Shown here one piece after another: positions 3,050 to 17,114 of a stretch of 32,000 nt of DNA. Where the stretch lies: the NCBI RefSeq assembly GCF_000007985.2, contig NC_002939.5, positions 2,640,001 through 2,672,000 of the forward strand, read 5' to 3'. A program made the translations under genes and the position numbers. The number at the start of each line of letters is the position of its first letter. The first letter of the stretch is position 1. The notes beneath the pieces were generated by a model. It had not been told where the DNA came from, searched no databases, and saw nothing but the letters and a program-made list of their open reading frames with translations. This DNA is from Geobacter sulfurreducens PCA (GTDB taxonomy: Bacteria > Desulfobacterota > Desulfuromonadia > Geobacterales > Geobacteraceae).

Positions 3050-3075
3050 CTCCTGTTCAGACTCCTTTTGCTTTT

Positions 3076-3474
3076 TCAGCCGACCTGTACGGCGATCCGT
3101 TTTGGCTTGGCGGCTTCCGCCTTTGGCACCCGCAGAGTCAGGATGCCGTTCACGTATTCGGCTTTGGCCTTTTCATGGTCAAGGCTCTCCGGAATCGAGA
3201 ACTGCCGGTAGTAGCTGGCCAGCTCGAACTCACGGTAGGCCGTGGTGCCCGGCATCTCGTGGCTCACAGGGGCACTGATGGTCAGGATGCCCTTTTCGAC
3301 GTTGACATCCAGGGTTTCCTTCGCGGCGCCGGGAATGTCGGCGGTCAGGACCAGCCCTTCTTCGGTTTCGATAATGTTCACCGCCGGCCGGATGTAGCGT
3401 TCGTTTGACCGTGTCTCTTCACGGGGCTGTACATTCCGTTCTTCATTTCTTTCCGTCAAGCTGTTGACTGCCAT
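3076..3474 (-). CDS. Small heat-shock protein, Hsp20/alpha-crystallin family (132 aa)
   Basis: Alpha-crystallin signature: VNIIETEEGLVLTADIPGAAKETLDVNVEKGILTISA ... YRQFSIPESLDHEKAKAEYVNGILTLRVPK. RBS AGGAGGTAATCAATC sits upstream of the ATG. Confidence 0.9.
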   Translation of the reverse strand: MAVNSLTERNEERNVQPREETRSNERYIRPAVNIIETEEGLVLTADIPGAAKETLDVNVEKGILTISAPVSHEMPGTTAYREFELASYYRQFSIPESLDHEKAKAEYVNGILTLRVPKAEAAKPKRIAVQVG

Positions 3475-3511
3475 GATTGATTACCTCCTTTCCGCGAGAA
3501 CCTTCAAAGCG

Positions 3512-3961
3512 TCACGAAAGTTTGATCTCGATTTTCTTTGGTTTGGCATGTTCAGCCTTAGCCAACGCGATCCTCAAAATCCCGTCCTTGCACTGGGCCG
3601 TGATCTTACCGGGATCGATGTCGGTCGGCAGCTCCAGGGTCCGTGAGAATTTACCGGAACCAAGTTCCGAACGGTGCACGATCTGCCCTTCGCTTTGGAC
3701 GAACGGTTTGCGTTCCCCGCTGATGGTGACCGTATTCCGCAGCACGGACAGGTCAACATCCTTCGGATCGACGCCGGGGACCAGAGCCTCAATGTAAATG
3801 TAGCCCTCATCCTCGCTGAAGTTGACCAGCGGGAAACGGCGGGATGTAACCGGCGAAAGGAATGTCGGTCCAAACGGCCGGCCAAAGCCTGCACCGCGGA
3901 ACGCTTCATCGATTTCCCTTCTCAGATTGTCCAACTCTTTGAATACATCCCAGGTTGCCAT
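3512..3961 (-). CDS. Small heat-shock protein, Hsp20/alpha-crystallin family (149 aa), first gene of the cluster
   Basis: Alpha-crystallin signature: VNFSEDEGYIYIEALVPGVDPKDVDLSVLRNTVTISGERK ... GKFSRTLELPTDIDPGKITAQCKDGILRIALAK. RBS AGGAGGTAATCCAC sits upstream of the ATG. Confidence 0.9.
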   Translation of the reverse strand: MATWDVFKELDNLRREIDEAFRGAGFGRPFGPTFLSPVTSRRFPLVNFSEDEGYIYIEALVPGVDPKDVDLSVLRNTVTISGERKPFVQSEGQIVHRSELGSGKFSRTLELPTDIDPGKITAQCKDGILRIALAKAEHAKPKKIEIKLS

Positions 3962-4848: not shown

Positions 4849-6156
4849 ATGAGCCATTGGTATCCCCACGAATTCGCCGCCCACATCTGCCGGCAGCTGA
4901 AAACCGAGGTCCCGGAGCGGCCCCGGGAGGACTGCCCCGGCTGCTCGATCCTGTCCGTGCTCCTCTCCACCTGCTACCAGGCGAGCCTGATGCGGGAGGA
5001 GGAGCGCCAGGTCCGCTTCCGCCTGATCTTCCGCGAACCCGAACGCTTCCCGGCGGGCCAGGACCCTCCGGACGGCCTGCATCGCCTGGTTTTCCTGGAA
5101 CCGCGCCCCTGCACCGAGGACGAGCTGCGCCGCCTCTCGCCGGCGATCAGCTTCGACCGCGCCATGATCGGGGTAAACCTGAATGCCGACGGAAAGCTGC
5201 AGATCTGGGGCGTGGTCCACTCGGGCACCCGCTGGATGCAGGCGGTCCACGGGGGTACCCAATTGATCAACCCGGTGCCTGACTCGCTCATCGTGTTCGT
5301 GACCGGGCCGGGACGAATCAGCGTGTCGGTGGGATCGACCATGATCGCCGGCCTGCGGGGCGGCCAAGTGGTCAGCATGGCGCGGGAGGTGTTCGCCGCC
5401 TCATGGCTCCGGGAGATATTCGCCACCCACCGGGACGAGTTATGGGACCTGCACCTGGATGCGCGCCAGAAGTCCGGCGACATCTGGCCTCCGATCGACC
5501 CGGAATTCCCGGTCATTCTCGGCCAGAACCTGCTCCGCCGGGTTATCAGCCTGATGCGCAGCTATCGCCACGGCGGCACCCTGCTGATCATTCCCAGCGA
5601 GCGGACCGATGAGCTGAAACAGGCAAATCCCTACCTGAACATCAAGTATCCGTTTCTGACCGATATCGGCCGGCGGCGGATCTTCCCGCACATCGTCGGG
5701 ATCATGAACGAATTCGCCCGGGTAGCCAGCAGGTCGCAGCGGGAGTGCAGGCCCCTGGGGTGGGACGAATACCTGGCCCTCAGCGATCCGGTCCTGACCC
5801 GGATGGACGAGGCCCTGTTCGAGCTGGCCCACTTCGTAGCCGATCTCTCCCTGGTGGACGGGGCGGTGGTGCTGAACCGGAGGTTCGAGGTGCTCGGGTT
5901 CGGGGCGGAGATTTCCGGCGGGCTGGAGAACGTGACCCGGTTGCACGTGGCCCTGGATATCGAGGGAGAGACCCGGCAACCCGAGGCGGTCAAGGGGCGC
6001 GGAACCCGCCACCGGTCGGCCTACCGGCTCTGCAACGCCCTCCACGATGCCCTGGCCATTGTGATCTCCCAGGACGGCCAGGTGCTGTTCGTCCACTGGC
6101 ATGACGGCGCCGTGACCTGCTGGGACCAGGTGGCCACCAGCCTGCTCGACTTCTGA
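4849..6156 (+). CDS. Diadenylate-cyclase (DAC/DisA_N) domain protein with an uncharacterised N-terminal domain (435 aa)
   Basis: The C-terminal ~200 aa carry the DAC hallmarks in the canonical order: HGGTLLIIPSE (aa 241-251), DGA in VDGAVVLN (nt 5857-5865), and GTRHRSA (RHR at nt 6007-6015) followed by DALAIVISQDGQVLFV. I recognise no family for the N-terminal ~230 aa, which contain a CPGC motif (aa 29-32). Confidence 0.7.
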   Translation: MSHWYPHEFAAHICRQLKTEVPERPREDCPGCSILSVLLSTCYQASLMREEERQVRFRLIFREPERFPAGQDPPDGLHRLVFLEPRPCTEDELRRLSPAISFDRAMIGVNLNADGKLQIWGVVHSGTRWMQAVHGGTQLINPVPDSLIVFVTGPGRISVSVGSTMIAGLRGGQVVSMAREVFAASWLREIFATHRDELWDLHLDARQKSGDIWPPIDPEFPVILGQNLLRRVISLMRSYRHGGTLLIIPSERTDELKQANPYLNIKYPFLTDIGRRRIFPHIVGIMNEFARVASRSQRECRPLGWDEYLALSDPVLTRMDEALFELAHFVADLSLVDGAVVLNRRFEVLGFGAEISGGLENVTRLHVALDIEGETRQPEAVKGRGTRHRSAYRLCNALHDALAIVISQDGQVLFVHWHDGAVTCWDQVATSLLDF

Positions 6157-6948: not shown

Positions 6949-9443
6949 CCCTCCACGGCCGCCTCCTCCGCCGCCAGCTCGCCACCTCGCGCCGCCAGTC
7001 GGCCATCTTCGTTCTCTGCGTGGCCCTTTCCATCGTTACCCTGGTTTCCCTGGCCGGCTTCGGCCGCAGCGTCCACAGCTCCATGCTGCGGGACGCCCGG
7101 GCACTCCACGGGGGGGACGTGATCGTGGAGTCCCGCTCGCCCCTGTCGCCGGGGCTCACGGCGGCGGTGAACCGGGTCATCGCGGCGGGCAGGGCCGAGG
7201 GCGCCCGCATCAACGAGTTCTACTCCATCATCCGCCCGGCAGGGCGGGAGGATTCCCTCCTGGCTCACATCAAGGCGGTGGAGCCGGGCTATCCCTTCTA
7301 CGGCACCGTGGATCTGGCCTCGGGCCGCCCTTTCCGGCAGGTGCTGGCGCCGGGCCGGGCCATTGCCGAGCAGACCCTGCTGGACCGGCTCGGCCTCCGG
7401 GTGGGAGACCGGCTCCGGCTGGGGGACGCCACCCTGACCGTTGCCGACGTGGTCACCCAGGAACCGGACCGGCCCGTGAACGTCTTTTCCCTGGGGCCCC
7501 GCCTCTTTGTGGCCGCCGCCGATCTCCCCTCCCTGGGGCTGGTGGGCCAGGGGAGCCGGGTGAGCCACACCATCATCCTGAAGGTGGCGAACCCCAGGGA
7601 GACCGACCGGATCGCCGCGGAGCTGCGGGCCTCGGCCCTGCGCGACCGGGAGCGGGTCGACACCTACCGCACCGCCCAGTCGGGGGTAAAGCGCTTCTTC
7701 GACAACTTCCTCTTCTTCCTGAACCTGATCGGCATCTTCACCCTGCTCCTGGCCGGCATCGGCATCCAGAGCTCCCTGGCCGCCTACCTGGCCGAGCAGC
7801 GGCCATCCATCGCCGTGATGAAAGCCCTGGGGGCCACGGGCCGCTTTCTGGTGGTCCACTACGTGGCAGTGGCCTCGGTGCTGGGGATCGTGGGAACGGC
7901 GCTGGGGATCGGGGCGAGCTTCCTCCTCCAGGGGGTCTTGCCGGAGCTGTTCCGGGGGCTGTTGCCGGCCACCGTGGAGTTCCGCATCGCGGCCCCGGCC
8001 GTGGCAGAGGGGCTCGTGCTCGGCTTTTTGACCGTGACCCTCTTCACCCTCCTTCCGCTCTGGCAGCTGCGGGCGGTGAAGCCCCGGGCCATCCTGGGCA
8101 AGGAGGAGGATCCGACGGTGCGCAGCCGCGCGGTCTGGGTCACGACGGGAGCCGTGGTCCTCTTCTTCCTGGCCATGGTTCTCTGGAAGGTGGAGGAGCC
8201 CCGGAGCGGCGTCAACTTCGTGCTGGGGGTGGGTGGGCTGATCCTCCTGTCCCTTGCCTGCACCGAGGCGGTGCTGCGGCTCCTGCGCAGGGCGCGCCCC
8301 CGGCGGCTCGCAGCGCGCCAGGCCCTGCGGGGGCTCTTCCGCCCGCGCAATGCCACCCGGCCCATCATCGTCACCCTCACGGCGGCCCTGGCGGTGATCT
8401 TCGCCATCACCCTGGTGGAGCGGAACCTGGATGCCTCCTACATCCGCTCCTATCCACCGGACGCGCCGAACCTGTTCTTCATCGACATCCAGCCGGGCCA
8501 GAAGGAAGATTTCAGCCGTACCCTGGGGATGCCGGCCCTGTTCCACGCCATTGTCCGGGGGACCGTGACCGCCATCAACGGCCGCCCGATCGACCGGGAG
8601 GCGGAGCGGCGCAAGCGAGGGGACAACCTGTCCCGGGAATTCAACCTGACCTACCGGGACAGCCTCCTGGAGGACGAACGGATCATCGAGGGGAAGAGCC
8701 TGTTCCGCCCCGACTGGCAGGGGGTCCAGGTGTCGGTCCTGGACACGGTGGTGGAGATGAGCCCCATGGCGGTGGGCGACGTGATCACCTTCCGGGTGCA
8801 GGGGGTGCCGATCGAGGCCCGGATCTCCAGCATCCGGACCCGGACCAGGGCCGCAGTGCAGCCCTACTTCTACTTTGTGTTCCAGCCCGCCGTGCTCAGG
8901 GATGCCCCCCAGACCTTCTTCACCGCGGTGCGGGTGGAAAAGCCGGGCATAGCGCAGCTCCAGAACCGGATCGCGGCCCGCTTCCCCAACGTGAGCATCT
9001 TTGACCTGACCGAGACCGTGGCGGTCTTTGCCCGGGTCATGGGGCGGCTCTCGGTCATCGTCCGCTTCTTCACCCTGTTCAGCGTGGTGGCCGGGGCCCT
9101 GATCATCGTCAGTTCAGTCATCGCCACCCGGCAGGCCCGGCTGCGGGAAGCAGTCTTCTTTACCATACTGGGTGCCCGGGGCAGGTTCGTCCTGTCGGTC
9201 TTCACCATGGAAAACCTGATCATCGGCGGGGTAAGCGGATTCCTGGCCCTGGGCCTCGCCCAGGCGGCCAGCTGGATCGTCTGCACCCGGGTTCTGGACG
9301 TCTCCTGGCAGCCCTTCCCGGCCGTGAGCGCCGCCCTGGTGGCGGCAACGGTGGTGCTGGTGGTGGCCGTGGGGCTCGGGGCGTCCCTGTCCATCATCAG
9401 GAAAAAGCCGGTGGTCTTTCTGCGGGAGCAGGCCGAGGAGTAA
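6945..9443 (+). CDS. ABC transporter permease with duplicated FtsX-like domains (YbbP-type, 832 aa)
   Basis: Large polytopic protein with two FtsX-type modules, each a 4-TM block after a large loop. It overlaps the ATPase gene by 4 nt (ATGA). The size and ABC/TesA neighbourhood match ybbA-ybbP-tesA. Confidence 0.8.
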   Translation: MTLHGRLLRRQLATSRRQSAIFVLCVALSIVTLVSLAGFGRSVHSSMLRDARALHGGDVIVESRSPLSPGLTAAVNRVIAAGRAEGARINEFYSIIRPAGREDSLLAHIKAVEPGYPFYGTVDLASGRPFRQVLAPGRAIAEQTLLDRLGLRVGDRLRLGDATLTVADVVTQEPDRPVNVFSLGPRLFVAAADLPSLGLVGQGSRVSHTIILKVANPRETDRIAAELRASALRDRERVDTYRTAQSGVKRFFDNFLFFLNLIGIFTLLLAGIGIQSSLAAYLAEQRPSIAVMKALGATGRFLVVHYVAVASVLGIVGTALGIGASFLLQGVLPELFRGLLPATVEFRIAAPAVAEGLVLGFLTVTLFTLLPLWQLRAVKPRAILGKEEDPTVRSRAVWVTTGAVVLFFLAMVLWKVEEPRSGVNFVLGVGGLILLSLACTEAVLRLLRRARPRRLAARQALRGLFRPRNATRPIIVTLTAALAVIFAITLVERNLDASYIRSYPPDAPNLFFIDIQPGQKEDFSRTLGMPALFHAIVRGTVTAINGRPIDREAERRKRGDNLSREFNLTYRDSLLEDERIIEGKSLFRPDWQGVQVSVLDTVVEMSPMAVGDVITFRVQGVPIEARISSIRTRTRAAVQPYFYFVFQPAVLRDAPQTFFTAVRVEKPGIAQLQNRIAARFPNVSIFDLTETVAVFARVMGRLSVIVRFFTLFSVVAGALIIVSSVIATRQARLREAVFFTILGARGRFVLSVFTMENLIIGGVSGFLALGLAQAASWIVCTRVLDVSWQPFPAVSAALVAATVVLVVAVGLGASLSIIRKKPVVFLREQAEE

Positions 9444-9477
9444 CGGGGCCGTCGGGACCGGAATACGGAGGTATACC

Positions 9478-10158
9478 GTGAATCTCAGGAAAAGTCTGAT
9501 GGCGGTTATTGCGCTGACCGCCCTGGCCGGGTGCGACCGCAAGGAGGCTGCCCGGCCCGCGGCTCCGGCGCAGCAGGAGGCCCGTGCCACGGCAGGGACC
9601 ATCGTGGCGGTGGGGGACAGCCTCACCGCCGGCTACGGCCTCGACGAACACGATGCCTACCCGGCCCAACTGGAGCGGCTGCTGCGGGAGGCCGGTCGCC
9701 CCTGGCGGGTGGTGAATGCGGGAATCAGCGGCGAGACGAGCAGCGGCGCCCTGTCGCGCGTGAACTGGGTCCTAACCCTGAAGCCGGATATCGTTATCCT
9801 GGTCACCGGCGCCAACGACGGCCTGCGGGGGATCGACCCGAAGGTGACGGAAAAGAATCTCGACGAGATGGTCCGCACGCTGAAGGAGCGCAACGTCACC
9901 GTGGTCCTGGGCGGGATGAAGATGGTCGCGAACCTGGGCCGGGACTACACCCGCGCCTTTGCCGCCGTCTACCCGGCCGTGGCGAAGCGCCACGACCTGA
10001 TCCTGATTCCCTTTTTCCTGGAAGGGGTTGCAGGGCGCCCCGACCTGAACCAGGCCGACGGCATCCACCCCACGGCCGAGGGATACCGAATCGTGTCCGA
10101 TACGGTACTTCCCTACGTGATCAAGGCCATCGAGCAGACTCCGCCATCTGGCGGCTGA
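9478..10158 (+). CDS. tesA: SGNH/GDSL hydrolase lipoprotein, TesA-like (thioesterase I / lysophospholipase L1 family)
   Basis: GTG start after a GGAGG RBS. Lipobox LTALAGC. SGNH blocks are present: GDSLTAGYG (block I), GISGETS (block II), GANDGL (block III) and DGIHPT (block V). Confidence 0.85.
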   Translation: MNLRKSLMAVIALTALAGCDRKEAARPAAPAQQEARATAGTIVAVGDSLTAGYGLDEHDAYPAQLERLLREAGRPWRVVNAGISGETSSGALSRVNWVLTLKPDIVILVTGANDGLRGIDPKVTEKNLDEMVRTLKERNVTVVLGGMKMVANLGRDYTRAFAAVYPAVAKRHDLILIPFFLEGVAGRPDLNQADGIHPTAEGYRIVSDTVLPYVIKAIEQTPPSGG

Positions 10159-10352
10159 AATCAAATGGCGTGTCACATTCGACATTAACCATTACTACAT
10201 ATAATTGCAAAGAAAACATCCTCCACACCCCCCATTCGAACCAGCCGAAAATTCGGACTATATTCAGTCATTCCACGGCAACACGTCGCCCCCTTCCATA
10301 AAACATTATTTTGCATCTCGCGCTCCATTCGACGATTTTTAGAAATTAGTTC

Positions 10353-10379
10353 TAAAGTTTCGACCTGCCGCTCCGAAAA
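10353..10379 (+). promoter_or_regulatory. Sigma28 (FliA)-type promoter candidate for the cheW-hydrogenase-MCP operon
   Basis: TAAAGTTT (10353-10360), N11, TCCGAAAA (10372-10379), compared with the enterobacterial consensus TAAAGTTT-N11-GCCGATAA. The -35 matches 8/8 and the -10 matches 6/8 with the CCGA core intact. It lies about 93 nt upstream of the cheW ATG. Confidence 0.55.
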
Positions 10380-10471
10380 GCGTTTGTATACATATCGGCA
10401 TTATTCTTGATTGCAGAGACAAATCGGGCAGTTCGCTTCTATTGTGGCACTGAAAGGACGGGTTTTCCCCC

Positions 10472-10972
10472 ATGACGACTCTGCCAACCCTATCGACCGG
10501 AAGCGCGACCGCAAGTACCCCCCTGCAGGTGGTCGTGTTCTCCGTGGGAAGCGAAGAGTACTGCTTCGAGATCCTCAAGGTCCGGGAAGTCATCCGGACG
10601 GTGCCCATCACCGCCGTGCCCAGCGCCCCGCCCCATGTGGAGGGAATCATCAACCTGCGGGGCGCGGTCGTCCCCATCATCGACTTCCGCAAGCGGTTCA
10701 ACATCACCGGCGAGTGCACGGTGGACGAATCGGAAAAGGTGGTGATCGTCGCCGCCGCCGGGAGCACGACCGTAGGCTTTACCGTGGATGCCCTGAGCCA
10801 GGTGCTGAAGGTGCCGCGGGAGGCCGTATCCACCCCACCCACCGGCGTGAGCGACCAGGGCGGCGAGGCCATAACGGGCGTTGCCTCCATGGGAGACCGC
10901 CTGATCATCGTGCTCGATATCGAGCGGTTGTTTTCCGAGGATGAACTCACCAATCTGACAGGAGTGGCCTGA
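10472..10972 (+). CDS. cheW: Chemotaxis coupling protein CheW
   Basis: CheW-domain sequence: LQVVVFSVGSEEYCFEILKVREVIRTVPITAVPSAPPHVEGIINLRGAVVPIIDFRKRF ... GVASMGDRLIIVLDIERLF. Length is 166 aa. Confidence 0.9.
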   Translation: MTTLPTLSTGSATASTPLQVVVFSVGSEEYCFEILKVREVIRTVPITAVPSAPPHVEGIINLRGAVVPIIDFRKRFNITGECTVDESEKVVIVAAAGSTTVGFTVDALSQVLKVPREAVSTPPTGVSDQGGEAITGVASMGDRLIIVLDIERLFSEDELTNLTGVA

Positions 10973-10974
10973 TC

Positions 10975-11487
10975 ATGTCCGACCTCATGACTACCCGAGC
11001 CGCCCTCCAGGAAACCATGACGTTTCTCGGCGCCATCGCCAGCGGCATGGAGGAGGCCATCGGCGAATCCGCCAACAGCATCACCTATCTGGCCGGCAAG
11101 CGGCTCGGCATGCAGTTTTCCGCCGACATCCGGAAGACCGACGACGTGGAAGAGGCTCTGGCCGCCGTCCGCACGGTGCTCCAGGACAACAACTGCCTCT
11201 GGCACTTCGAGCCGTTCCAGGCCCACGACCGGCCGGCCCTGATCCAGGCCACCGACAAGGGCGACGAGGATATCCACCTGGTCTTCCGGGACTGCATGAT
11301 CCGTCAGTCCCTGTTCCGTTTCGGGCACCACCAGAAGGGCTCCCTCTGCACCATGATGTTCGGGTTCTTCTCCGGCGCGCTCCTGAACGTGATGGGGGTC
11401 GATTCGACCCTGGAGATCATGCACGCCGGCGAGAACGCCTGCCTGAAGCGGCTGGTGATCCACAAGAAAAGGGAGGAGAAACCGTGA
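10975..11487 (+). CDS. V4R-like (4-vinyl-reductase fold) Cys-rich small protein, copy 1 (170 aa)
   Basis: The C-terminal half has the V4R-like pattern FRDCMIRQ...GSLCTMMFGFFSGALLNV...GENACLKRLV, that is C-x17-C-x30-C. AGGAG RBS is present. The gene starts 2 nt after the cheW stop, and its TGA overlaps the GTG of the hydrogenase small subunit. Confidence 0.6.
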   Translation: MSDLMTTRAALQETMTFLGAIASGMEEAIGESANSITYLAGKRLGMQFSADIRKTDDVEEALAAVRTVLQDNNCLWHFEPFQAHDRPALIQATDKGDEDIHLVFRDCMIRQSLFRFGHHQKGSLCTMMFGFFSGALLNVMGVDSTLEIMHAGENACLKRLVIHKKREEKP

Positions 11488-12434
11488 GCACCGTCCCGAT
11501 CAACCTGGAATGGCTCAGCGACTGCTCCGGCTGCCATATCGCCATCGTGGACCTGCACGAAAAGATCCTGTCGGTCCTGGACTCGGTCACCATCCAGCGC
11601 TGCCCGGTTCTGACCGACGTGAAGGATTACCCCAAGGCGAAAGTGGGGCTGGTCTCCGGCGCCATCCGGACCGAGCACGACCGCCACGCGGCCATGGAGA
11701 TGCGCAAGAGCTGCGACCTGATCATTGCCTGGGGCTCCTGCGCCGTGTACGGCGGAATCGCCGGGGCCGGCAACGTCCACTCCTGCCAGGAGATCATGGA
11801 CACGGTCTACACCGGCAACAAGACCACGGCGACCACCACTCCGCCCACGAGGGAAGTGTCGGCCCTGGAGCCGTCCGTGTCGCCACTGGACAGCGTAATC
11901 GACGTGGACCTCTACCTCCCCGGCTGTGCCCCCCACCCGGCCTTTGTCTTCGATGCCCTCCTGGCGCTCCTGGAAGGACGCTCGCCCCGTATCGCCAACC
12001 GTGAGACGGTCTGCGCCCGCTGCCGGAGAACGATGGAAAAGACCGAGGTGGACCGGATCAGGAAAAATTCGGAAGGGGTGCCCGACCCGGACCGCTGCTT
12101 CCTGAGCCAGGGCTACCTCTGCATGGGGTCGGTGACCCTGGACCGCTGCATGTCCCCCTGCCCCCTGAACGGCATCCCGTGCAGCGGCTGCGCCGGCGCC
12201 ACCATGCAGGTGCTGGCCGAGCCCAACCGCGACATCAGGACCGAGATCGCCGAGCGGATGTCGCGCCTGACCAGCATCCCGCGCGAGGCCATTGTCCGGG
12301 AAATCGAGCGGACGGCCAAGACCCACTATTCCTACACCATGGCCACCCCCATGATCGGCGAGAAGCCCACCTTCCTGATCCGGAAATGGACCGACGAGGA
12401 ACGAGACGACTATGAACAAGACCATAACCATTGA
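11484..12434 (+). CDS. [NiFe]-hydrogenase small subunit, cytoplasmic (group-3/MvhG-like; no Tat signal)
   Basis: GTG start after GGGAGGAG. Proximal-cluster motifs are LSDCSGCH, WGSCAVYGG and LPGCAPHP. Additional Cys clusters are CARCRR and CFLSQGYLCMGSVTLDRCMSPCPLNGIPCSGCAG. There is no RRxF twin-arginine leader. Confidence 0.85.
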   Translation: MSTVPINLEWLSDCSGCHIAIVDLHEKILSVLDSVTIQRCPVLTDVKDYPKAKVGLVSGAIRTEHDRHAAMEMRKSCDLIIAWGSCAVYGGIAGAGNVHSCQEIMDTVYTGNKTTATTTPPTREVSALEPSVSPLDSVIDVDLYLPGCAPHPAFVFDALLALLEGRSPRIANRETVCARCRRTMEKTEVDRIRKNSEGVPDPDRCFLSQGYLCMGSVTLDRCMSPCPLNGIPCSGCAGATMQVLAEPNRDIRTEIAERMSRLTSIPREAIVREIERTAKTHYSYTMATPMIGEKPTFLIRKWTDEERDDYEQDHNH

Positions 12435-13833
12435 TCCCGTCACCCGCATCGAGGGGCACGCGCGGGTCTTCATCGACCTGGACGATACGGGTGCGCTCAC
12501 GGCCGCGGGGCTCGTGGTGAACGAGCTGCGCGGTTTCGAGAAGATCCTGACCGGCATGGACGCGGACCGGATGCCCCTGGTCACGGCCCGCATCTGCGGG
12601 GTCTGCCCCACGGCCCACCACCTGGCCGCCACCAACGCCCTGAACAATGCCGCGGGCGTGGAGCCGCCACCGGCCGCGAAACTGCTGCGCGAGCTCATGT
12701 ACATGGGGCACGTGATCCACTCCCACTGCCTCTCCCTGTTCGTGCTGCAGGGCCCCGACCTGGTCCTGGGCCTCGACGCCGACCCCGCCGTCCGCAACGT
12801 GGTGGGGGTGGTACAGGCAGCCCCGGATATCGCCAAAAAGGCCCTCCAGTGCCGCTCCATCGGCCAGAAGATCAACGAACTGGTCGGCGGGCGGGGCACC
12901 CACCCCGTCACCTCGGTAGCCGGCGGAATCGCCTTCGTACTCGACGCCGACCGGGAGCGACAGCTCAACGCCTGGATCAACGAGGCCCGCGACCTTGTGC
13001 TGGAGCTGGCGCCCGTGGTGAAGCAGCTCCTGATGAAGATGCTCGACACCCATCCGGCCATGCTGCAGCAATGGGTTGCCCCGGCCTGGAGCGTCGGCAC
13101 GGTCAAGGCCGACGGCACCCTGGCCCTGGTGAACGGCGAGATCCGGGCCGTGGATGAGGTCGGCGCCCTGAAGGCCCGGTTCCCCTCGGCCGATTACGAT
13201 TCGTACATGTCCGAGTCGGCGGTGGAGTTCTCCTACATGAAGCAGGTTTCCTTTGTGGATGGGGACAATCGCCACGACTACCGGGTGGGCCCCCTGGCCC
13301 GGCTCAACGTCTCCGAGCGCTACGGCACCCCCCTGGCGGACCGGGAGCGGGAGGAGTTCATCCGGACCGTGGGGCGCCCCTGCCACGCCAATGCGCTCCA
13401 ACCCTGGGCCCGACTGATCGAGCTCCTCTACTGCACCGAGCGGGCCGGGGAAATCATGGCCGATCCGGCCATCCACGGCGAGACCCGCGTTCCGGTAACC
13501 TTCTCCGGTGGCCGGGGCGTGGGGCACGTGGAGGCACCCCGGGGCACCCTGATCCACGACTATGAAATCGACGAGAACGGCATTGTCCGGGCGGCGAACC
13601 TGATCGTGGCGACTCAGCAGAATTACGCCCTGATCAACGCCATGATCGCCCAGGCCGCCACCTCCCACGTCATCAACCGCCCCGACGACCAGGCGCTGCT
13701 CAATGCGGTTGAGTTCGGCATCCGCTGCTACGACCCCTGCCTCTCCTGCGCCACCCATGCACTGGGCGCCATGCCCCTGGAAATCGTCGTGAACCGCGCC
13801 GCAAAGCCCCGCGTCATCCGGAGGAACTGCTGA
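12412..13833 (+). CDS. [NiFe]-hydrogenase large subunit (473 aa) with a cleavable C-terminal extension
   Basis: N-terminal TRIEGH and ELRGFEK. L1 motif RICGVCPTAHH (nt 12589 onward). L2 motif DPCLSCATH (nt 13732-13758), followed by a 24-aa tail ALGAMPLEIVVNRAAKPRVIRRNC. Confidence 0.92.
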   Translation: MNKTITIDPVTRIEGHARVFIDLDDTGALTAAGLVVNELRGFEKILTGMDADRMPLVTARICGVCPTAHHLAATNALNNAAGVEPPPAAKLLRELMYMGHVIHSHCLSLFVLQGPDLVLGLDADPAVRNVVGVVQAAPDIAKKALQCRSIGQKINELVGGRGTHPVTSVAGGIAFVLDADRERQLNAWINEARDLVLELAPVVKQLLMKMLDTHPAMLQQWVAPAWSVGTVKADGTLALVNGEIRAVDEVGALKARFPSADYDSYMSESAVEFSYMKQVSFVDGDNRHDYRVGPLARLNVSERYGTPLADREREEFIRTVGRPCHANALQPWARLIELLYCTERAGEIMADPAIHGETRVPVTFSGGRGVGHVEAPRGTLIHDYEIDENGIVRAANLIVATQQNYALINAMIAQAATSHVINRPDDQALLNAVEFGIRCYDPCLSCATHALGAMPLEIVVNRAAKPRVIRRNC

Positions 13834-14084
13834 TGGTCGAGATCAAGGTCCATGAAGAGGCGTGCCGGGGCTGCCGGATGTGCGTCGACATCTGTCCCAC
13901 CACGGTCTTTGCCTATGACGAGGAAAAGCGGCTCTGCGTGGTGGAGCACCAGGAGGACTGCATCGCCTGCCTGAGTTGCGCCTATATCTGCCCCTCGGGG
14001 GCCATCAGCCAGGAGAACTATCACGTGGTCAAGAACTTCTACCGCGACCTGGCCTTCTGCACCAAGATGGAGAAGTTCATATGA
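13833..14084 (+). CDS. 2x[4Fe-4S] ferredoxin (83 aa)
   Basis: Two CxxCxxCxxxCP motifs: CRGCRMCVDICP and CIACLSCAYICP. The ATG overlaps the large-subunit TGA (TGATG). Confidence 0.9.
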   Translation: MVEIKVHEEACRGCRMCVDICPTTVFAYDEEKRLCVVEHQEDCIACLSCAYICPSGAISQENYHVVKNFYRDLAFCTKMEKFI

Positions 14085-14536
14085 GCGCGATCACCGAACA
14101 GGTCACCCTTGACGACCACGTCAACGCCGCCACGGAAGTAGCCTTCCTGCTGGACATCTTCGCCGCCACCGTCGACAACGTCATGGGCGGAGCAACGGCC
14201 TCGGTGGGCCGGATCGCCGGTCGGGAGATGGCGCGGAAGCTGCCGGTCCACCTGACCAACCCCACCCTGGACGAGGTCGTGGCGATCCTCAACTCCCGCA
14301 TGGAAGCCGGGTACCGGTTCCGGCTGGAGGGGGACGGCACCGAGCGCACCCTCTTGTTCGACCACTGTGTCCTGCGGGAGGTCTGCGCCAAGCGGGGACT
14401 CACCATGGGTACGGCCCTGTGCCGCCTCTTCCACGCCTACCTGGACGGCATCCTGAACGAGCTCATCTGCCGCCCGGTGAAATCGGAGGTCGTGTCATGC
14501 GGGGACCAGTGCCGACTGAACCTCAGAACCCAGTAG
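14081..14536 (+). CDS. V4R-like Cys-rich small protein, copy 2 (151 aa)
   Basis: The ATG at 14081 overlaps the ferredoxin stop (ATGA). The pattern FDHCVLREVCAKRGLTMGTALCRLFHAYLDGILNE...SCGDQCRLNL gives C-x17-C-x29-C, the same spacing as copy 1. The longer track ORF (13976) would run inside the ferredoxin gene. Confidence 0.6.
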   Translation: MSAITEQVTLDDHVNAATEVAFLLDIFAATVDNVMGGATASVGRIAGREMARKLPVHLTNPTLDEVVAILNSRMEAGYRFRLEGDGTERTLLFDHCVLREVCAKRGLTMGTALCRLFHAYLDGILNELICRPVKSEVVSCGDQCRLNLRTQ

Positions 14537-15018
14537 CGGCTCCGGGGGTCGTGGTGGTCTGCGTCGGCAACGACCTGGTGGCCGACGACGCCGTGGGGTA
14601 CGAGATCCACCGGCGGCTGGCCGGGGCGCCCCTCCCCGCGGGGGTGCGGCTCCACTACGCGGCCGTGGGCGGGATCGCCCTCCTGGACTACCTGACCGGC
14701 GGGGAAGCGGCCATGATCGTGGTGGACGCGGTCCAGTTCGGCGCACCGGCCGGGACGATCCACCAGCTGGCGTGGGACGAGCTCCCGAATTTCGGGGGCG
14801 GGTCCATCTCGGCCCACTCCATCGGCCTGAAGGAAACCATGGACATCGGGAAGCTCCTCTACCCGGAGCGGCTGCCGCCGACGGTGACCCTGGTGGGAAT
14901 CGAGGGGCGCTGTTTCGACCGGACCCGCGACGCCATGTCGCCGGAGGTGGCATCAGCCATAGAACCGGCCGTCGCCCTGATCCGCAACTACCTCCATACT
15001 CTTGGACAAGGAATCTGA
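14497..15018 (+). CDS. [NiFe]-hydrogenase maturation endopeptidase (HycI/HybD/HoxW family)
   Basis: Family motifs are VVVCVGNDLVADDAVGYEI, VDAV and SAHSIGL. The ATG at 14497 is preceded by GGAGG (14485-14489). A slightly later GTG start cannot be excluded. Confidence 0.8.
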   Translation: MRGPVPTEPQNPVAAPGVVVVCVGNDLVADDAVGYEIHRRLAGAPLPAGVRLHYAAVGGIALLDYLTGGEAAMIVVDAVQFGAPAGTIHQLAWDELPNFGGGSISAHSIGLKETMDIGKLLYPERLPPTVTLVGIEGRCFDRTRDAMSPEVASAIEPAVALIRNYLHTLGQGI

Positions 15019-15019
15019 C

Positions 15020-16621
15020 ATGAAGAAATCAGGCGCCAAACCAGCGGAAATGACCCTGCACCGTGAAATCCAGCGACTCGCCGAGGCCATGATGAACGGG
15101 AGGCTCGACGAACGGGGGGACCCTGCGCAGTTCACCGGCGACGATGCCGCACTGGTTCTCATGGTCAACCGGATGCTGGACACGCTGGTGACGCCGCTCC
15201 GCCTGGCCGCCGGCGCCATCGACGAGATCGCCCACGGCAGGATCCCTCCCTTTGTCATCGACGACTACACCGGGGAGTACAACAACCTCAAGCGCAACCT
15301 CAACACCCTCCTGGCCACCCTCTACGGCCTCCACAGCGAGACCCAGCACCTGGTCGGCAACATCGGTGAGGGAAGGCTCCAGACCCGGGGCAACGACTGG
15401 GATTTCGAGGGGATCTGGCGCGATCTGATCAAGGGGGTGAACGGAACCCTCGACGCGGTCATCGACCCGGTGAACGAGGCGGGGACCGTGCTCCGCCACC
15501 TGGCCGAGTACGACCTGAGCGCCCGGATGCGGGGGAAATACCACGGCGAGCACGCCGCCATCAAGAAGGCCATGAACTCGACGGCGGAATCGCTCCACTC
15601 GGCCGTGACCCAGATGACCGAAACGGTGGAACTGGTCTCGGCCGTCGGCGGGCAGATCGCCGACAGCAGCCAGCTGGTGACCCAGGGGGCCCGGGAGCAG
15701 GAGGCCCAGCTGACCGAGACCTCCAACGTGCTCGATCACATCGCCGCCACCTCCCAGAAGAGCGCCCGGAGCACCATTGACGCCCGCCAGGCCGCCGGCG
15801 GCTCCGCCGAGTCCATCAAAACGGCCAAGTCGGTCATGGACCAGATGCTCCAGGCCATGGGGCAGATCCGGAGCGCGGCGGACAACACCGTGGGTATTGT
15901 CCAGCAGATCGACTCCATTGCCAAGGAAACCGACCAGCTCTCTTCCAACGCCACCAGCAAGGCAACCCTGATCCGTTCCTCCGCCAACGGCTTCAGCGTG
16001 GTTGCCTCGGAAATCAGGAACCTGTCGAAACGGTGCGAGGACGCCGTGACACGGCTCCACGACTTCCGGCGCCGGGCTACCCTGACCCCCAATGGGGGGA
16101 GCGGAGACACGGACGATGCGCTCGAATGCGAGTACCTGGAACTGATTCACGAGTTGAAGAGCGTGGCCTCCAGCTCAGGCCTGCTGGGAGTGAACGCAGC
16201 GATCTCGGCGGCCCACGTGGAAGGTGCCGGCAACGACTTCCAGGTGCTGACCGAGGAGATCCGCCAACTGGCCAAGCGTTCCACCGATGCGGCGCGGCAG
16301 ACCGACACGCTCATCAAGACATCGGTCGAGCAGGCCCGGCGGGGAGAGGACCTGTCCCGCAAGATCGACGTCCACCTCACCGAGGCGGTAACCGGGGCAA
16401 CGACGATCTGCGCCCTGACCGAGGACATCTCCCAGAGCAGCCAGGAACAGGCGAGCGCCATCGAGCAGATCAGCCGCTCCGTCAACCACATCACCACCAT
16501 CACCAGGCAGAACGCGGACAGCGCGCTCAAGTCGTCGGAAGTATCGCACAAACTCGGCCAGCAGATGACCAAGCTCACCAGCATGGTGAGCAAGTTCAGG
16601 CTGGACAACGCCGCCTGCTGA
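15020..16621 (+). CDS. Soluble methyl-accepting chemotaxis protein: N-terminal HAMP-like repeats plus an MCP signalling domain with a duplicated tip
   Basis: I see no hydrophobic TM segment. There are four HAMP-like repeats (NGRLDERGD..., HGRIPPFVIDDYTGEYNNLKRNLNTL, EGRLQTRGNDWDFEGIWRDL, EYDLSARMRGKYHGEHAAIKKAMNST). The MCP tip-like sequence LLGVNAAISAAHVEGAGNDFQVLTEEIRQLAKRS is present, plus a degenerate second copy. The ATG at 15020 follows AAGGAA. The track start at 15002 is a TTG inside the protease gene. Confidence 0.85.
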   Translation: MKKSGAKPAEMTLHREIQRLAEAMMNGRLDERGDPAQFTGDDAALVLMVNRMLDTLVTPLRLAAGAIDEIAHGRIPPFVIDDYTGEYNNLKRNLNTLLATLYGLHSETQHLVGNIGEGRLQTRGNDWDFEGIWRDLIKGVNGTLDAVIDPVNEAGTVLRHLAEYDLSARMRGKYHGEHAAIKKAMNSTAESLHSAVTQMTETVELVSAVGGQIADSSQLVTQGAREQEAQLTETSNVLDHIAATSQKSARSTIDARQAAGGSAESIKTAKSVMDQMLQAMGQIRSAADNTVGIVQQIDSIAKETDQLSSNATSKATLIRSSANGFSVVASEIRNLSKRCEDAVTRLHDFRRRATLTPNGGSGDTDDALECEYLELIHELKSVASSSGLLGVNAAISAAHVEGAGNDFQVLTEEIRQLAKRSTDAARQTDTLIKTSVEQARRGEDLSRKIDVHLTEAVTGATTICALTEDISQSSQEQASAIEQISRSVNHITTITRQNADSALKSSEVSHKLGQQMTKLTSMVSKFRLDNAAC

Positions 16622-16650
16622 ACCTGGTTTCGCCACGCCGCAATCCTGGC

Positions 16651-16690
16651 AGGCCCCCATCCGGAGCGACATGATGGGGGCCTCTTTTTA
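16651..16690 (+). terminator. Intrinsic terminator of the cheW-hydrogenase-MCP operon
   Basis: AGGCCCCCAT (16651-16660) pairs with ATGGGGGCCT (16674-16683), followed by CTTTTTAT. It begins 30 nt after the MCP stop. Confidence 0.8.
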
Positions 16691-16850: not shown

Positions 16851-17114
16851 ATGATCTATCTCACCACGGACCAATTCGACCAGGCCGTCTACTTCGAACT
16901 TCGCCGGAGCGAGCATCCCCGTCGCAGCGGCGGCGCGATGCACGTTCTCCACGGGCTCCTGGGGAACGGGGTCAGCGAGATGCCCGTGACCATCCGCAGC
17001 GGGCAGGATTGGACCGACGTGGATTTCGGCAAGGGGGACCTCTTCAGCTTCGTGGATGAGCGGACCGTCCGCCGGATGCTCGGCCAGGTGGCGCGGGAGA
17101 TGGAACTCCACTGA
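16851..17114 (+). CDS. Hypothetical protein (87 aa)
   Basis: The ATG at 16851 is preceded by GGGAGG. Third-codon positions are GC-rich like the neighbouring genes. I recognise no family (MIYLTTDQFDQAVYFELRRSEHPRRSGG...). Confidence 0.55.
   Translation: MIYLTTDQFDQAVYFELRRSEHPRRSGGAMHVLHGLLGNGVSEMPVTIRSGQDWTDVDFGKGDLFSFVDERTVRRMLGQVAREMELH

Follow-up and report, generated by a model that had tools for sequence, protein, structure and literature searches.

The eight-gene cluster described here places a cytoplasmic [NiFe] hydrogenase beside a soluble chemoreceptor (methyl-accepting chemotaxis protein, MCP), and represents a candidate sensory hydrogenase with a chemoreceptor output at a locus that was already known. 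The linkage between hydrogenase and receptor is real and conserved, which makes the system a good candidate for a means by which bacteria could steer by hydrogen or by their own redox state. It is proposed, with moderate confidence, that electrons derived from H2 determine the state of a module of ferredoxin and two V4R-fold proteins, and that a poly-HAMP MCP devoid of any sensor domain reads that state. The proposal builds on observed gene content, assigned domains and folds, intact catalytic and Fe–S motifs, solubility, ferredoxin–V4R fusions, and an MCP linkage that is conserved and arose once.

Identity and layout of the cluster

The locus is the annotated Geobacter 'mvh' cluster, GSU2416-2423 in G. 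sulfurreducens (PMC8691401), being either the same locus or the orthologue of a close strain. Two of its products, referred to here as X1 and X2, are 98% and 100% identical, respectively, to the G. sulfurreducens proteins; both clusters have eight genes, with no structural difference between them, and a pyruvate carboxylase gene lies a few genes downstream. The Mvh cluster was reportedly first described by Coppi (2005, Microbiology 151:1239). In G. sulfurreducens, GSU2428 is pyruvate carboxylase (PMC7894505), and the MCP has been named MvhV, a methyl-accepting chemotaxis sensory transducer, in two proteomics papers (PMC8691401, PMC7894505). Its detection in the proteomes reported there is counted in favour of a sensory role (PMC7894505, PMC8691401). 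Because existing annotation already treats the genes as one cluster, with the MCP named, the linkage of MCP and hydrogenase is not itself new. H2 uptake does not require Mvh, for which H2 production is a possible role (PMC7894505). The literature consulted assigns the cluster no other function, and no experiment is known to link Mvh to behaviour, which is counted against a sensory role.

The features of the cluster are listed in Table 1. All eight of the closely packed ORFs initially annotated were found, in the order cheW, X1, small subunit, large subunit, 2x[4Fe-4S] ferredoxin, X2, maturation protease and soluble MCP, and the seven junctions between them were confirmed in the sequence: the cheW stop at 10972 and X1 ATG at 10975; GTGA at 11484-11487, where the X1 TGA overlaps the small-subunit GTG; a 23-nt overlap of the two subunit genes (12412-12434); TGATG at 13831-13835, joining the large-subunit TGA and ferredoxin ATG; ATGA at 14081-14084, containing the ferredoxin stop and X2 start; an overlap from the protease ATG at 14497 to the X2 TAG at 14536; and a 1-nt gap between the protease TGA (15016-15018) and the MCP ATG (15020). 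The protease ATG is in frame with an ORF opening at 14419. Pfam domains in the cluster were CheW, Oxidored_q6, NiFeSe_Hases, Fer4, HycI, and HAMP_2 with MCPsignal. Averaged over 19 residues, Kyte–Doolittle hydropathy does not exceed 1.7 anywhere in the eight proteins (the MCP maximum is 1.21), and all eight are therefore predicted to be soluble.

Table 1. Features of the hydrogenase–chemoreceptor cluster, with positions in the window (the whole 32-kb stretch of DNA analysed)
Feature	Position	Strand	Basis or remark
sigma28 (FliA)-type promoter-like motif	10353..10379	+	TAAAGTTT-N11-TCCGAAAA, 93 nt upstream of cheW
cheW, coupling protein, 166 aa	10472..10972	+	Pfam CheW, 127 bits
X1, V4R/Bet3/H-NOX-fold protein, 170 aa	10975..11487	+	AlphaFold2 and Foldseek
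Small subunit, MvhG-like, 316 aa, no Tat leader	11484..12434	+	Pfam Oxidored_q6; NCBIfam VhuG best match
Large subunit, MvhA-like, 473 aa	12412..13833	+	24-residue C-terminal extension past DPCLSCATH
2x[4Fe-4S] ferredoxin, 83 aa	13833..14084	+	Pfam Fer4 families
X2, V4R/Bet3-fold protein, 151 aa	14081..14536	+	AlphaFold2 and Foldseek
Maturation endopeptidase, HycI/HybD type	14497..15018	+	Pfam HycI; NCBIfam TIGR00072, 121 bits
Soluble MCP (MvhV), 533 aa	15020..16621	+	Poly-HAMP array and kinase-control domain
Intrinsic terminator, hairpin and U-run	16651..16690	+	Folding energy, sequence

The promoter-like motif lies exactly where it had first been placed. Its pattern, drawn up after the site was seen, had no other match in the window and none in 100 shuffles. 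In the closest relatives (L004 and L005, the latter G. hydrogenophilus), the DNA upstream of cheW has kept both elements while the intergenic sequence around them has diverged, which is counted in favour of a sensory role; a predicted sigma28-type promoter precedes the entire unit in the G. sulfurreducens group. The strong terminator likewise proved to be present, as a G+C hairpin of 10-11 bp (GGCCCCCATC/GATGGGGGCC) followed by UCUUUUUAU, with a folding energy of -23.4 kcal/mol (z = -2.05). It was missed by the automatic scan because its loop is 11 nt.

The hydrogenase and its partner proteins

The small subunit begins MSTVPINLEWLSDCSGCH, with no twin-arginine leader, in agreement with the cytoplasmic location first suggested. 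Its residues 5-246 align with MvhG (5ODC_E, E = 5e-69), the Fe–S cysteines being retained, and the best solved relative of the large subunit is MvhA (5ODC_F, E = 3e-97). Both Ni–Fe ligand motifs are kept, as originally noted (RICGVC, residues 60-65; DPCLSCATH, 441-449), together with RIEGH. RIEGH, RxCGxC and DPCxxCxxH were found in all 81 aligned large subunits, except that in three of them an in-frame TGA takes the place of the second Cys of RxCGxC. The enzyme looks fully catalytic: it retains the Glu for proton transfer and a C-terminal extension, is served by its own protease and has three Fe–S sites. Such an intact complement resembles that of a bulk-metabolic enzyme and includes no hallmark of a dedicated H2 sensor, which is counted against a sensory role.

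Like the group 3c MvhAGD of methanogens (Hdr–Mvh, PDB 5ODC), the enzyme is cytoplasmic, with the same Fe–S cysteine pattern and a protease-cleaved C-terminal extension. It might be a true Mvh that passes its electrons to an unlinked Hdr-like complex (GSU0085-0092) for flavin-based electron bifurcation, with the MCP incidental. The closest solved relatives, from the Hdr–Mvh complex, and the best NCBIfam matches, VhuA and VhuG, agree with this, as does the presence of an Hdr cluster elsewhere in G. sulfurreducens (PMC7894505). It is nevertheless very improbable, since the matches fall far under the Vhu equivalog cut-offs (large subunit, 354 vs 800 bits; small subunit, 241 vs 450 bits) and an MvhD-like subunit is absent from both the cluster and the window. 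Moreover, unlike MvhAGD, the module has no adjacent Hdr and carries a ferredoxin and a V4R pair absent from canonical Mvh, as well as, in this clade, an MCP; the one sampled relative without X1, ferredoxin and X2 (L079, 43% identity) has a large subunit more distant than any other in the alignment, and served as the outgroup of the tree. The initial annotation had reported no MvhD/Hdr-like, diaphorase or cytochrome b subunit in the unit. None was found across the 32-kb window either, nor were other che genes or any hyp genes.

The enzyme is also unlike the HupUV/HoxBC sensors (group 2b, HoxJ/HupT kinase). The proposed logic is the same, in that a cytoplasmic [NiFe] hydrogenase is read by an adjacently encoded signalling protein, but group 2b sensors are not known to have the C-terminal extension or a protease of their own, whereas the present enzyme is 3c-like and has both, along with ferredoxin and V4R parts and a proposed MCP/CheW output in place of a histidine kinase. 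Genetic ties between hydrogenases and MCPs, with H2 sensing proposed, are likewise found for [FeFe] group C2, from an unrelated hydrogenase superfamily; group C [FeFe] enzymes are known for a fused signalling domain, as opposed to the separate receptor seen here. HydDB lists MCP-linked sensing solely under that group, as 'chemotactic (putative)', and has no such [NiFe] class, in keeping with the initial annotation.

X1 has no Pfam match, and the sole match of X2, to ATC_hydrolase, is weak and under the cut-off. AlphaFold2 gave models with pLDDT 80 for X1 and 88 for X2. Foldseek matched X1 to the MopR/PoxR/DmpR sensor domain, Bet3, YslB, H-NOX and the V4R protein MJ1460 (E from 6e-5), and X2 to Bet3, BcsD and the MopR/PoxR sensor domain (E from 5.5e-5), while hhalign aligned the two with each other over 140 columns (probability 84.5%, E = 7e-6). 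X1 and X2 are distant paralogues with a predicted V4R/Bet3/H-NOX fold, and probably form a Bet3-like heterodimer. The description of both as V4R proteins stands at the level of the fold only, since the Pfam V4R model (PF02830) picks up neither of them with the threshold relaxed to E <= 10. In X1 the residues C107, C125, C156, H118 and H150 are invariant and C74 nearly so; in X2 the invariant residues are C96, C102, C114, C144 and H118.

MopR, PoxR and DmpR sense their effectors through domains of this fold, to which the gas sensor H-NOX also belongs, and this is counted for a sensory role; counted against it, the three cysteines common to X1 and X2 could just hold structural zinc, as in MopR. 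Stand-alone H-NOX proteins are separate gas-sensing proteins that control a partner from the same operon (an MCP, kinase or cyclase), although X1 and X2 show no sign of haem binding. The V4R proteins might themselves be the sensors, signalling to the MCP the presence of a small hydrophobic or aromatic ligand, with hydrogenase and ferredoxin only keeping their metal site or ligand reduced. In the structural comparison X1 matched phenol-bound sensor domains best, and its relatives are named 'predicted hydrocarbon binding protein' by JGI; sequence identity to the MopR/PoxR/DmpR-type domains is, however, just 13-17%, and none of the 80 + 80 sampled loci has the V4R pair in the absence of the hydrogenase, so that this explanation appears improbable.

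The ferredoxin has two complete CxxCxxCxxxCP motifs. In some relatives it is fused to an X2-type V4R protein (P0386, P0392, P0396, P0403, P0415 and P0426; loci L093, L099 and L124), the fusion genes directly following X1 and the two subunits, which is counted for redox wiring of the kind proposed here.

The receptor and its possible input

The MCP matches HAMP_2 (120 bits) and MCPsignal (97 bits), and its Aer2-like poly-HAMP region is its best-conserved part among 28 orthologues. Two hairpin-tip-like motifs occur at about residues 292-341 and 372-421, with an internal alignment score of 85, against 27 +/- 4.8 for shuffles. By Pfam and hydropathy analysis the MCP lacks transmembrane segments and any recognisable ligand-binding domain, whether PAS, Cache or another, and must therefore receive its input through a partner, which is counted in favour of a sensory role. 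The soluble receptor Aer2 has a similar HAMP array, but with its own PAS–haem sensor, of which the Mvh MCP has no counterpart.

We infer the following scheme, including all of its protein–protein contacts, the direction of electron flow, H2 as the stimulus and the Che pathway that is fed. At its heart is a conserved six-gene cytoplasmic module of X1, MvhG-like small subunit, MvhA-like large subunit, ferredoxin, X2 and dedicated protease. The NiFe site would split H2, the small-subunit Fe–S chain would carry the electrons to the ferredoxin, and the ferredoxin would dock on the V4R proteins. The HAMP array of the MCP may then read the redox or ligand state of the ferredoxin/V4R/hydrogenase assembly by direct contact and, with CheW, set the activity of an unlinked CheA, so that taxis, or some other Che-type output, would follow H2 or the reducing power of the cell. 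No cheA, cheY, cheR or cheB was found in the 32-kb window, which is counted against a sensory role.

Conservation of the linkage

Neighbourhoods of orthologous large subunits were surveyed, as the initial annotation had suggested, in 80 + 80 sampled loci, 80 of them genome loci and with metagenome loci also covered. The core of X1, small subunit, large subunit, ferredoxin and X2, usually with the protease, was present in 78/80 genome loci from several phyla, X1 lying upstream of the small subunit in 78/80. An MCP directly follows the protease in 32 genome loci, all in one clade of the neighbour-joining tree of large subunits, and every clade member with readable downstream DNA has kept it (32/32 loci), although large-subunit identity across the clade falls to about 58%. 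Eight further metagenome loci have the same protease–MCP order, and in Geoanaerobacter and Trichlorobacter the MCP gene overlaps the preceding gene by 4-8 nt (translational coupling). It is apparent that the linkage is conserved, not a local accident, and has a single origin, which is counted in favour of a sensory role. In a clade centred on Geobacterales, the soluble poly-HAMP MCP was gained once behind the protease and retained since, and cheW was gained in front of the module in part of that clade. The unit is not a chemotaxis operon, as it was initially called: its chemotaxis genes are limited to cheW and one mcp, and just 16 of the 32 MCP-linked loci have a cheW, which precedes X1.

The core also occurs without any MCP in 46 loci, which tells against the earlier assignment of the ferredoxin and two V4R proteins as coupling parts of the MCP. 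Because the core stands by itself in many lineages, it must have some function that is independent of a linked receptor, a point against a sensory role. The enzyme could serve ordinary metabolism, passing electrons from H2 to ferredoxin or to another acceptor, the V4R pair then being the acceptor-binding or catalytic part and the MCP only co-expressed, responding to another cue or sensing energy status indirectly without contact with the enzyme. Every catalytic and maturation feature is intact, about half of the loci have the core operon on its own, the ferredoxin–V4R fusions suit electron transfer, and V4R was first named for the proposed reductase BchJ. We nonetheless consider this unlikely, if far from negligible: unbroken retention of a coupled, sensor-less MCP across so diverged a clade is hard to square with co-expression alone, an MCP without an input domain needs a protein partner, and unrelated signalling genes have been recruited to the module in other clades.

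Those clades carry, at the same positions, Roadblock/LC7, REC-PATAN or Ser/Thr-kinase genes, or none. The signalling genes share the strand of the module, lie 9-100 nt away from it and are counted as independent signalling links in favour of a sensory hydrogenase; some of the Roadblock and kinase adjacencies may be due to chance, because Myxococcota genomes abound in both. In Desulfobulbales, the neighbours of the core are PCMT, YaaA, LarA and similar genes, and in the clade with ferredoxin–V4R fusions the core adjoins the S10 ribosomal operon.

Conservation and neighbours of the hydrogenase module

The cluster (10353-16690) comprises, in order, cheW, X1, the small and large hydrogenase subunits, a ferredoxin, X2, a maturation protease and a soluble methyl-accepting chemotaxis protein (MCP), X1 and X2 (170 and 151 aa) being the two proteins for which a V4R fold had been claimed. 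To locate relatives, one genome per species was scanned with a profile of the large subunit, the best 80 loci were kept, and the eight proteins of the window were located in each. It is apparent that X1, the small and large subunits, the ferredoxin and X2 occur in the same order and with the same spacing in 78 of the 80 loci, with the protease gene next in most. The loci are labelled Geobacterales, Desulfobulbales, Myxococcota (Polyangia, Anaeromyxobacter), Thermoanaerobaculia/Acidobacteriota and Latescibacterota.

An MCP gene directly follows the protease gene in 32 loci, which form a single clade in a neighbour-joining tree of the large subunits, and it was present in every member of that clade with readable downstream DNA. 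The clade extends down to about 58% large-subunit identity and includes some bins labelled Acidobacteriota or Latescibacterota. According to the gene calls, the protease and MCP genes overlap by 8 nt in Geoanaerobacter pelophilus and by 4 nt in Trichlorobacter lovleyi. Eight more MCP-linked loci came from a metagenome scan. Conservation of the linkage in related genomes, on which the initial annotation had made its sensory reading depend, was therefore upheld by the neighbourhood survey for this 32-locus clade. The gene linkage is real, ancient within the clade and mechanistically suggestive, and the MCP is a clade-specific addition to an older module. The ferredoxin and the two V4R proteins, which had been taken for the parts that couple enzyme to receptor, belong to that older core, which is also found without any receptor, and the claim did not stand in that form.

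The neighbours of the module where the MCP is lacking vary among clades. In the Desulfobulbales these neighbours are variable and unrelated; a PCMT gene lies upstream in nine loci, and the downstream genes (YaaA, LarA, a GntR regulator, alcohol dehydrogenases and others) are often convergent. A different signalling gene had been expected beside the Desulfobulbales module, an expectation that was rejected, the neighbours being unrelated housekeeping genes. A clade with a fused ferredoxin-X2 gene has the module next to the S10 ribosomal protein operon (S10, L3, L4, L23, L2, S19) and, in the loci L085, L087, L093 and L124, immediately upstream of it; Pfam confirmed the operon for L093, and ORFs of matching size point to it in the other three.

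The deep clades, mostly Myxococcota and Thermoanaerobaculia bins, have signalling-type genes on the same strand, 9-100 nt from the module. A Roadblock/LC7 gene directly follows X2 in six loci and directly precedes X1 in four, with two copies in L073. The position directly before X1 is taken by a receiver-DUF4388 (PATAN) gene in three loci and by a gene for a Ser/Thr kinase with TPR repeats in three. The flanking gene comes after X2 in L065, L067, L068, L069, L082 and L083 and before X1 in L061, L062, L063, L073 and L080; further loci with such flanking genes are L065, L068 and L070, and L066, L067 and L071. A long coiled-coil protein is encoded downstream in eleven loci, and those members that were scanned individually gave a weak Roadblock-like match at the C terminus. 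The Roadblock pattern was repeated in ten metagenome loci (L084, L091, L098, L100, L101, L111, L120, L125, L127, L149). Myxococcota genomes are crowded with Roadblock/kinase-type genes, and the Roadblock/REC/kinase context of the core is suggestive rather than proven. Three contexts of the core emerge from this survey: linked to an MCP, next to Roadblock/REC/kinase genes, and standing alone.

Two further observations concern these neighbours. An OmpA-like gene is also among the same-strand flanking genes in MCP-less relatives. A Bet3-fold pair placed beside Roadblock-fold proteins is reminiscent of the TRAPP and Ragulator platforms of eukaryotes.

Gene layout and class of the enzyme

All eight plus-strand ORFs were recovered at the positions first assigned to them, and reading of the sequence bore out every one of the close junctions between them, as listed in the table. 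Pfam and NCBIfam identified a CheW, an Oxidored_q6 small subunit, a NiFeSe_Hases large subunit, a two-cluster ferredoxin, a HycI-type endopeptidase and an MCP made up of HAMP_2 repeats and a signalling domain. No hydrophobic stretch of transmembrane strength was found in any of the eight proteins, and the small subunit, as had been claimed, bears no twin-arginine leader.

Positions of features in the window and in related loci
Feature	Sequence	Position	Strand	Remark
sigma28-like motif	window	10353-10379		TAAAGTTT-N11-TCCGAAAA
cheW stop / X1 start	window		+	2 nt apart
X1 / small subunit	window		+	common GTGA
Small / large subunit	window		+	23-nt overlap
Large-subunit stop / ferredoxin start	window		+	TGATG
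Ferredoxin stop / X2 start	window		+	ATGA
X2 / protease	window	from in-frame ATG at 14497	+	40-nt overlap
Protease stop / MCP start	window		+	1 nt apart
MCP	window	15020-16621		tip-like motifs at residues about 292-341 and 372-421
ORF of 87 residues	window	16851-17114	+	
Tandem HSP20 x3 beside DnaJ; DACNV and DisA-type diadenylate cyclase protein	window	2558-3961; 4849-6156	-; +	
Long antisense ORFs (examples)	window	11304-13118; 12235-13758	-	
In-frame TGA in large subunit	L073, L076, L077	8193-8195		
Module and S10 operon	L085, L087, L093, L124	about 8400-12300		
Ferredoxin-X2 fusion gene	L093	6998-7726		
Ferredoxin-X2 fusion gene	L099	6992-7726		
Ferredoxin-X2 fusion gene	L124	6995-7738		

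Promoters for sigma28 (FliA) follow a consensus of TAAA(GTTT)-N11-GCCGATAA-type elements. The sigma28-like motif proposed upstream of cheW is exactly where it had been placed, occurs once in the window and was found in 0 of 100 shuffles. Both of its elements stand out as conserved against the diverged upstream DNA of the two closest cheW-bearing relatives. In the G. sulfurreducens group, such a promoter would make the unit part of the late flagellar regulon. The proposed terminator was likewise confirmed, as a G+C hairpin of 10-11 bp followed by a U-run (-23.4 kcal/mol). An automatic promoter/terminator scan, being limited to sigma70 patterns and to loops of up to 8 nt, detected neither signal; both were checked instead by pattern search, alignment and folding. 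An Rfam scan of the whole window gave no match, so that no known riboswitch is present in the 313-nt leader.

The rest of the window holds unrelated genes, for DnaJ, three HSP20 proteins, a DAC-domain protein, an ABC transporter and a GDSL lipase and, further along, for O-acetylhomoserine sulfhydrylase, a nitroreductase, pyruvate carboxylase, a SurA-like protein, NfeD, a Lon-like protease, lipoate ligase and an E2 acyltransferase. The HSP20/DnaJ and DACNV/DisA-type genes are among those unrelated to the hydrogenase cluster. An ORF of 87 residues between the cluster terminator and the O-acetylhomoserine sulfhydrylase gene had no Pfam match and may not be a real gene. Long minus-strand ORFs were taken as by-products of the high G+C content and dismissed because of the strong homology on the plus strand.

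The large subunit has both of the Ni-Fe ligand motifs claimed for it (RICGVC, residues 60-65; DPCLSCATH, 441-449), together with the RIEGH glutamate. RIEGH, RxCGxC and DPCxxCxxH are kept in 81 of 81 aligned family members, barring three with an in-frame TGA at one Cys. Alignment of the small subunit with MvhG (5ODC_E) revealed that CSGCH, GxCAxxGG, PGC, CxxC and the C-terminal Cys cluster are retained, and with them all of the MvhG Fe-S cysteines, of the proximal, medial and distal clusters. The large subunit continues for 24 residues beyond the motif His, and the cluster includes a dedicated gene for a HycI-type protease. The enzyme is probably Mvh-like, related to group 3c, and looks catalytically complete.

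Among solved structures, the best matches are the MvhA and MvhG subunits of the methanogen Hdr-Mvh complex (E = 3e-97 and 5e-69), followed, for the large subunit, by NiFe-HydABCSL, a chain deposited as the F420-reducing hydrogenase alpha subunit, and the NAD-reducing enzyme. This kinship would suit a true Mvh that serves an unlinked Hdr complex. The top NCBIfam models, however, were VhuA and VhuG at 354 and 241 bits, far under the equivalog cut-offs of 800 and 450, and no MvhD or HdrABC gene was found in the cluster, the 32-kb window or the conserved neighbours of the 78 related loci. In contrast to the group 3c Mvh/Vhu enzymes, the cluster thus has a ferredoxin and V4R subunits in place of the defining partner MvhD/Hdr, and a true Mvh is very improbable. 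The claimed absence of an MvhD/Hdr, diaphorase or cytochrome b partner holds for the 32-kb window, in which there is also no other che gene and no hyp gene.

The H2 sensors of group 2b are not known to have a C-terminal extension or a protease. The enzyme does not resemble them: unlike HupUV/HoxBC, its large subunit has a C-terminal extension and its own protease, and where those sensors have the kinase HoxJ or HupT, the cluster contains no HisKA/HATPase gene and has an MCP and CheW instead.

A variant of the catalytic site was seen in three loci of Thermoanaerobaculia (L073, L076, L077), in which the in-frame TGA replaces the second Cys of RxCGxC, a bridging ligand. The reading frame continues, and a conserved hairpin begins 17 nt 3' of the TGA. 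This codon may specify selenocysteine, at a position unlike that in known [NiFeSe] hydrogenases.

The accessory proteins and the receptor

The initial annotation had called X1 and X2 V4R proteins, which is right at the level of the fold and fails at the level of the Pfam family. Neither protein matched the Pfam V4R profile (PF02830), even at E <= 10, and NCBIfam likewise gave none; the sole Pfam signal for X2 was a sub-threshold match to ATC_hydrolase. AlphaFold2 models built on 40-sequence alignments were confident (pLDDT 80 for X1, 88 for X2), and Foldseek searches with both returned E values from about 6e-5 and TM-scores of about 0.5-0.64. The structures matched by the two models (among them 5KBG, 5FRU, 6IY8, 2J3W and 3NJC) include MopR/PoxR/DmpR effector-sensing domains, TRAPP Bet3-family subunits, YslB, BcsD and H-NOX, and X1 additionally matches 2OSO/2OSD, which is MJ1460, a 'vinyl-4-reductase family protein'. 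It is on account of these structural matches that the name V4R is justified, and the models indicate that X1 and X2 share the V4R/Bet3/H-NOX/MopR-sensor fold.

Profile-profile comparison (probability 84.5%, E = 7e-6, 140 columns) identifies X1 and X2 as distant paralogues. They have three aligned cysteines in common (C107, C125 and C156 of X1; C96, C114 and C144 of X2). MopR has a structural zinc, and the triad is a candidate either for a structural-zinc site or for a redox-active centre. The matched Bet3-family PDB entries are heterodimer complexes and, since proteins of that family act as heterodimers, an X1-X2 heterodimer may by analogy reasonably be inferred. Two distant relatives, P0433 and P0437, have tandem V4R-V4R domains in one chain of about 310 residues.

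An exhaustive profile search of 1.84 billion clusters found only 80 representatives of the X2 family. In at least six of these (P0386, P0392, P0396, P0403, P0415, P0426), an N-terminal 2x[4Fe-4S] ferredoxin is fused to a C-terminal X2 domain, and metagenome genes for such fusions directly follow X1 and the small and large subunits in L093, L099 and L124. The fusion proteins are about 231-251 residues long. They place ferredoxin and X2 in physical contact, and this Rosetta-stone evidence suggests that the two also act in contact when encoded separately. The effector-sensing domains among the structural matches would accommodate another, improbable explanation, in which a small hydrophobic ligand is what the V4R proteins detect, with the hydrogenase in a supporting role.

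The MCP was recognized with 97 bits by MCPsignal (cut-off 34.6) and aligns to the cytoplasmic domains of Tsr and TM1143. It lacks a transmembrane segment as well as any input domain such as PAS or Cache; its N-terminal two-fifths form an Aer2-like poly-HAMP array. That array is the best-conserved region of the MCP among 28 orthologues, which is consistent with a conserved contact surface. The kinase-control domain contains two tandem Tsr-like hairpin-tip motifs, separated by a Gly/Asp-rich linker, TLTPNGGSGDTDDALE. Aligned with each other, the two motifs scored 85 (shuffles, 27 +/- 4.8); orthologues retain both, and both have diverged from the Tsr tip sequence. The doubled motif may entail an unusual interaction with CheA and CheW.

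CheW itself matched PF01584 with 127 bits over residues 19-157 of 166. No cheA, cheR or cheB lies in the 32-kb window; methylation of the MCP by CheR/CheB and control of CheA via CheW are predicted, the adjacent cheW being the sole indication. A cheW gene is present in only 16 of the 32 MCP-linked loci. Those of the window and its closest cheW-bearing relatives (L004, and L005 from G. hydrogenophilus) are only 28-38% identical to those of the other cheW-bearing group (L001, L011, L012, L016, L018-L024, L026, L028), as compared with 60-70% for X1 and the two hydrogenase subunits. Lineages lacking cheW stand between the two groups in the tree. The low identity relative to neighbouring genes suggests that cheW was recruited twice, or else that it diverged very fast.

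Sensory and metabolic readings of the cluster

In the reading given slightly better than even chances, as a whole, the hydrogenase would turn over H2, and the electrons would reach the dedicated ferredoxin, which would determine the state of the V4R pair; through direct contact the MCP would read that state with its sensor-less HAMP array and, together with CheW, control an unlinked CheA. This reading is favoured by how strictly a translationally coupled MCP lacking an input domain has been retained, by the sensor-fold accessory proteins and the ferredoxin-V4R fusions, and by other signalling genes having been recruited independently to the core. Against it stand the occurrence of the core alone in many lineages, the appearance of the enzyme as a working catalyst, and the fact that no experiment ties the enzyme to behaviour. 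The first two of these points would sit well with a metabolic hydrogenase, an H2:acceptor oxidoreductase with which the MCP is merely co-expressed; weighed with the retention of the MCP, this is unlikely, though it is the rival to which we give most credence. Were it correct, the name 'Mvh' would mislead, and the family would still have no known electron acceptor. The interpretation in the initial annotation is partly supported, and H2 taxis by this cluster is put forward as a hypothesis.

The locus is the 'Mvh' cluster of G. sulfurreducens or its counterpart in a closely related strain: X2 is 100% and X1 98% identical to Geobacter sulfurreducens proteins, and the nearest large subunits are from Geobacter. 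The Mvh cluster is said to have been first described by Coppi (2005). It consists of eight genes, GSU2416-2423 (PMC8691401). The physical linkage of MCP and hydrogenase is already in the curated annotation of this model organism. A comparative study of Geobacter chemotaxis genes makes no mention of hydrogen or of this MCP, and HydDB lists MCP-linked sensing only under [FeFe] group C2, with no such [NiFe] class. MCP-domain genes are among the [NiFe] neighbours in a 2025 neighbourhood survey, with Pelotomaculum PTH_0667 as an example and the Mvh cluster undiscussed. A literature search found no relevant report on V4R proteins and hydrogenase together.

Hydrogen is a central currency of anaerobic communities. 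We know of no identified receptor mechanism for H2 taxis and, to our knowledge, the known [NiFe] H2 sensors act on transcription only, via a histidine kinase. If the proposal is true, this would be the first [NiFe] hydrogenase to feed a chemoreceptor array; the cluster would fall within the sensory-hydrogenase idea rather than form a new category. H2 taxis has been reported for a methanogen (PMC3817446). Because the cluster is in a genetically tractable model organism, the question is directly testable.

A broader and more doubtful proposal is that the V4R-associated Mvh-like enzymes are an unrecognised signalling [NiFe] family, in which a ferredoxin-wired, Bet3-like V4R heterodimer serves as a universal H2/redox adaptor to lineage-specific outputs. 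In Geobacterales and allies the output would be the soluble MCP together with CheW; Roadblock/LC7, REC-PATAN and Ser/Thr-kinase modules would take that place in the Myxococcota and Thermoanaerobaculia, and unlinked partners in Desulfobulbales. The same V4R-ferredoxin-hydrogenase core with different signalling partners by phylum would amount to a new functional subclass, to be set next to HydDB groups 2b and 2c and [FeFe] group C, and would give the poorly understood bacterial V4R/Bet3-like proteins a concrete role. This family-level pattern is the part most worth pursuing. If the adaptor exists, it would provide a molecular mechanism for H2 taxis in bacteria and a prokaryotic instance of the Bet3-fold/Roadblock-fold pairing known from eukaryotic TRAPP and Ragulator.
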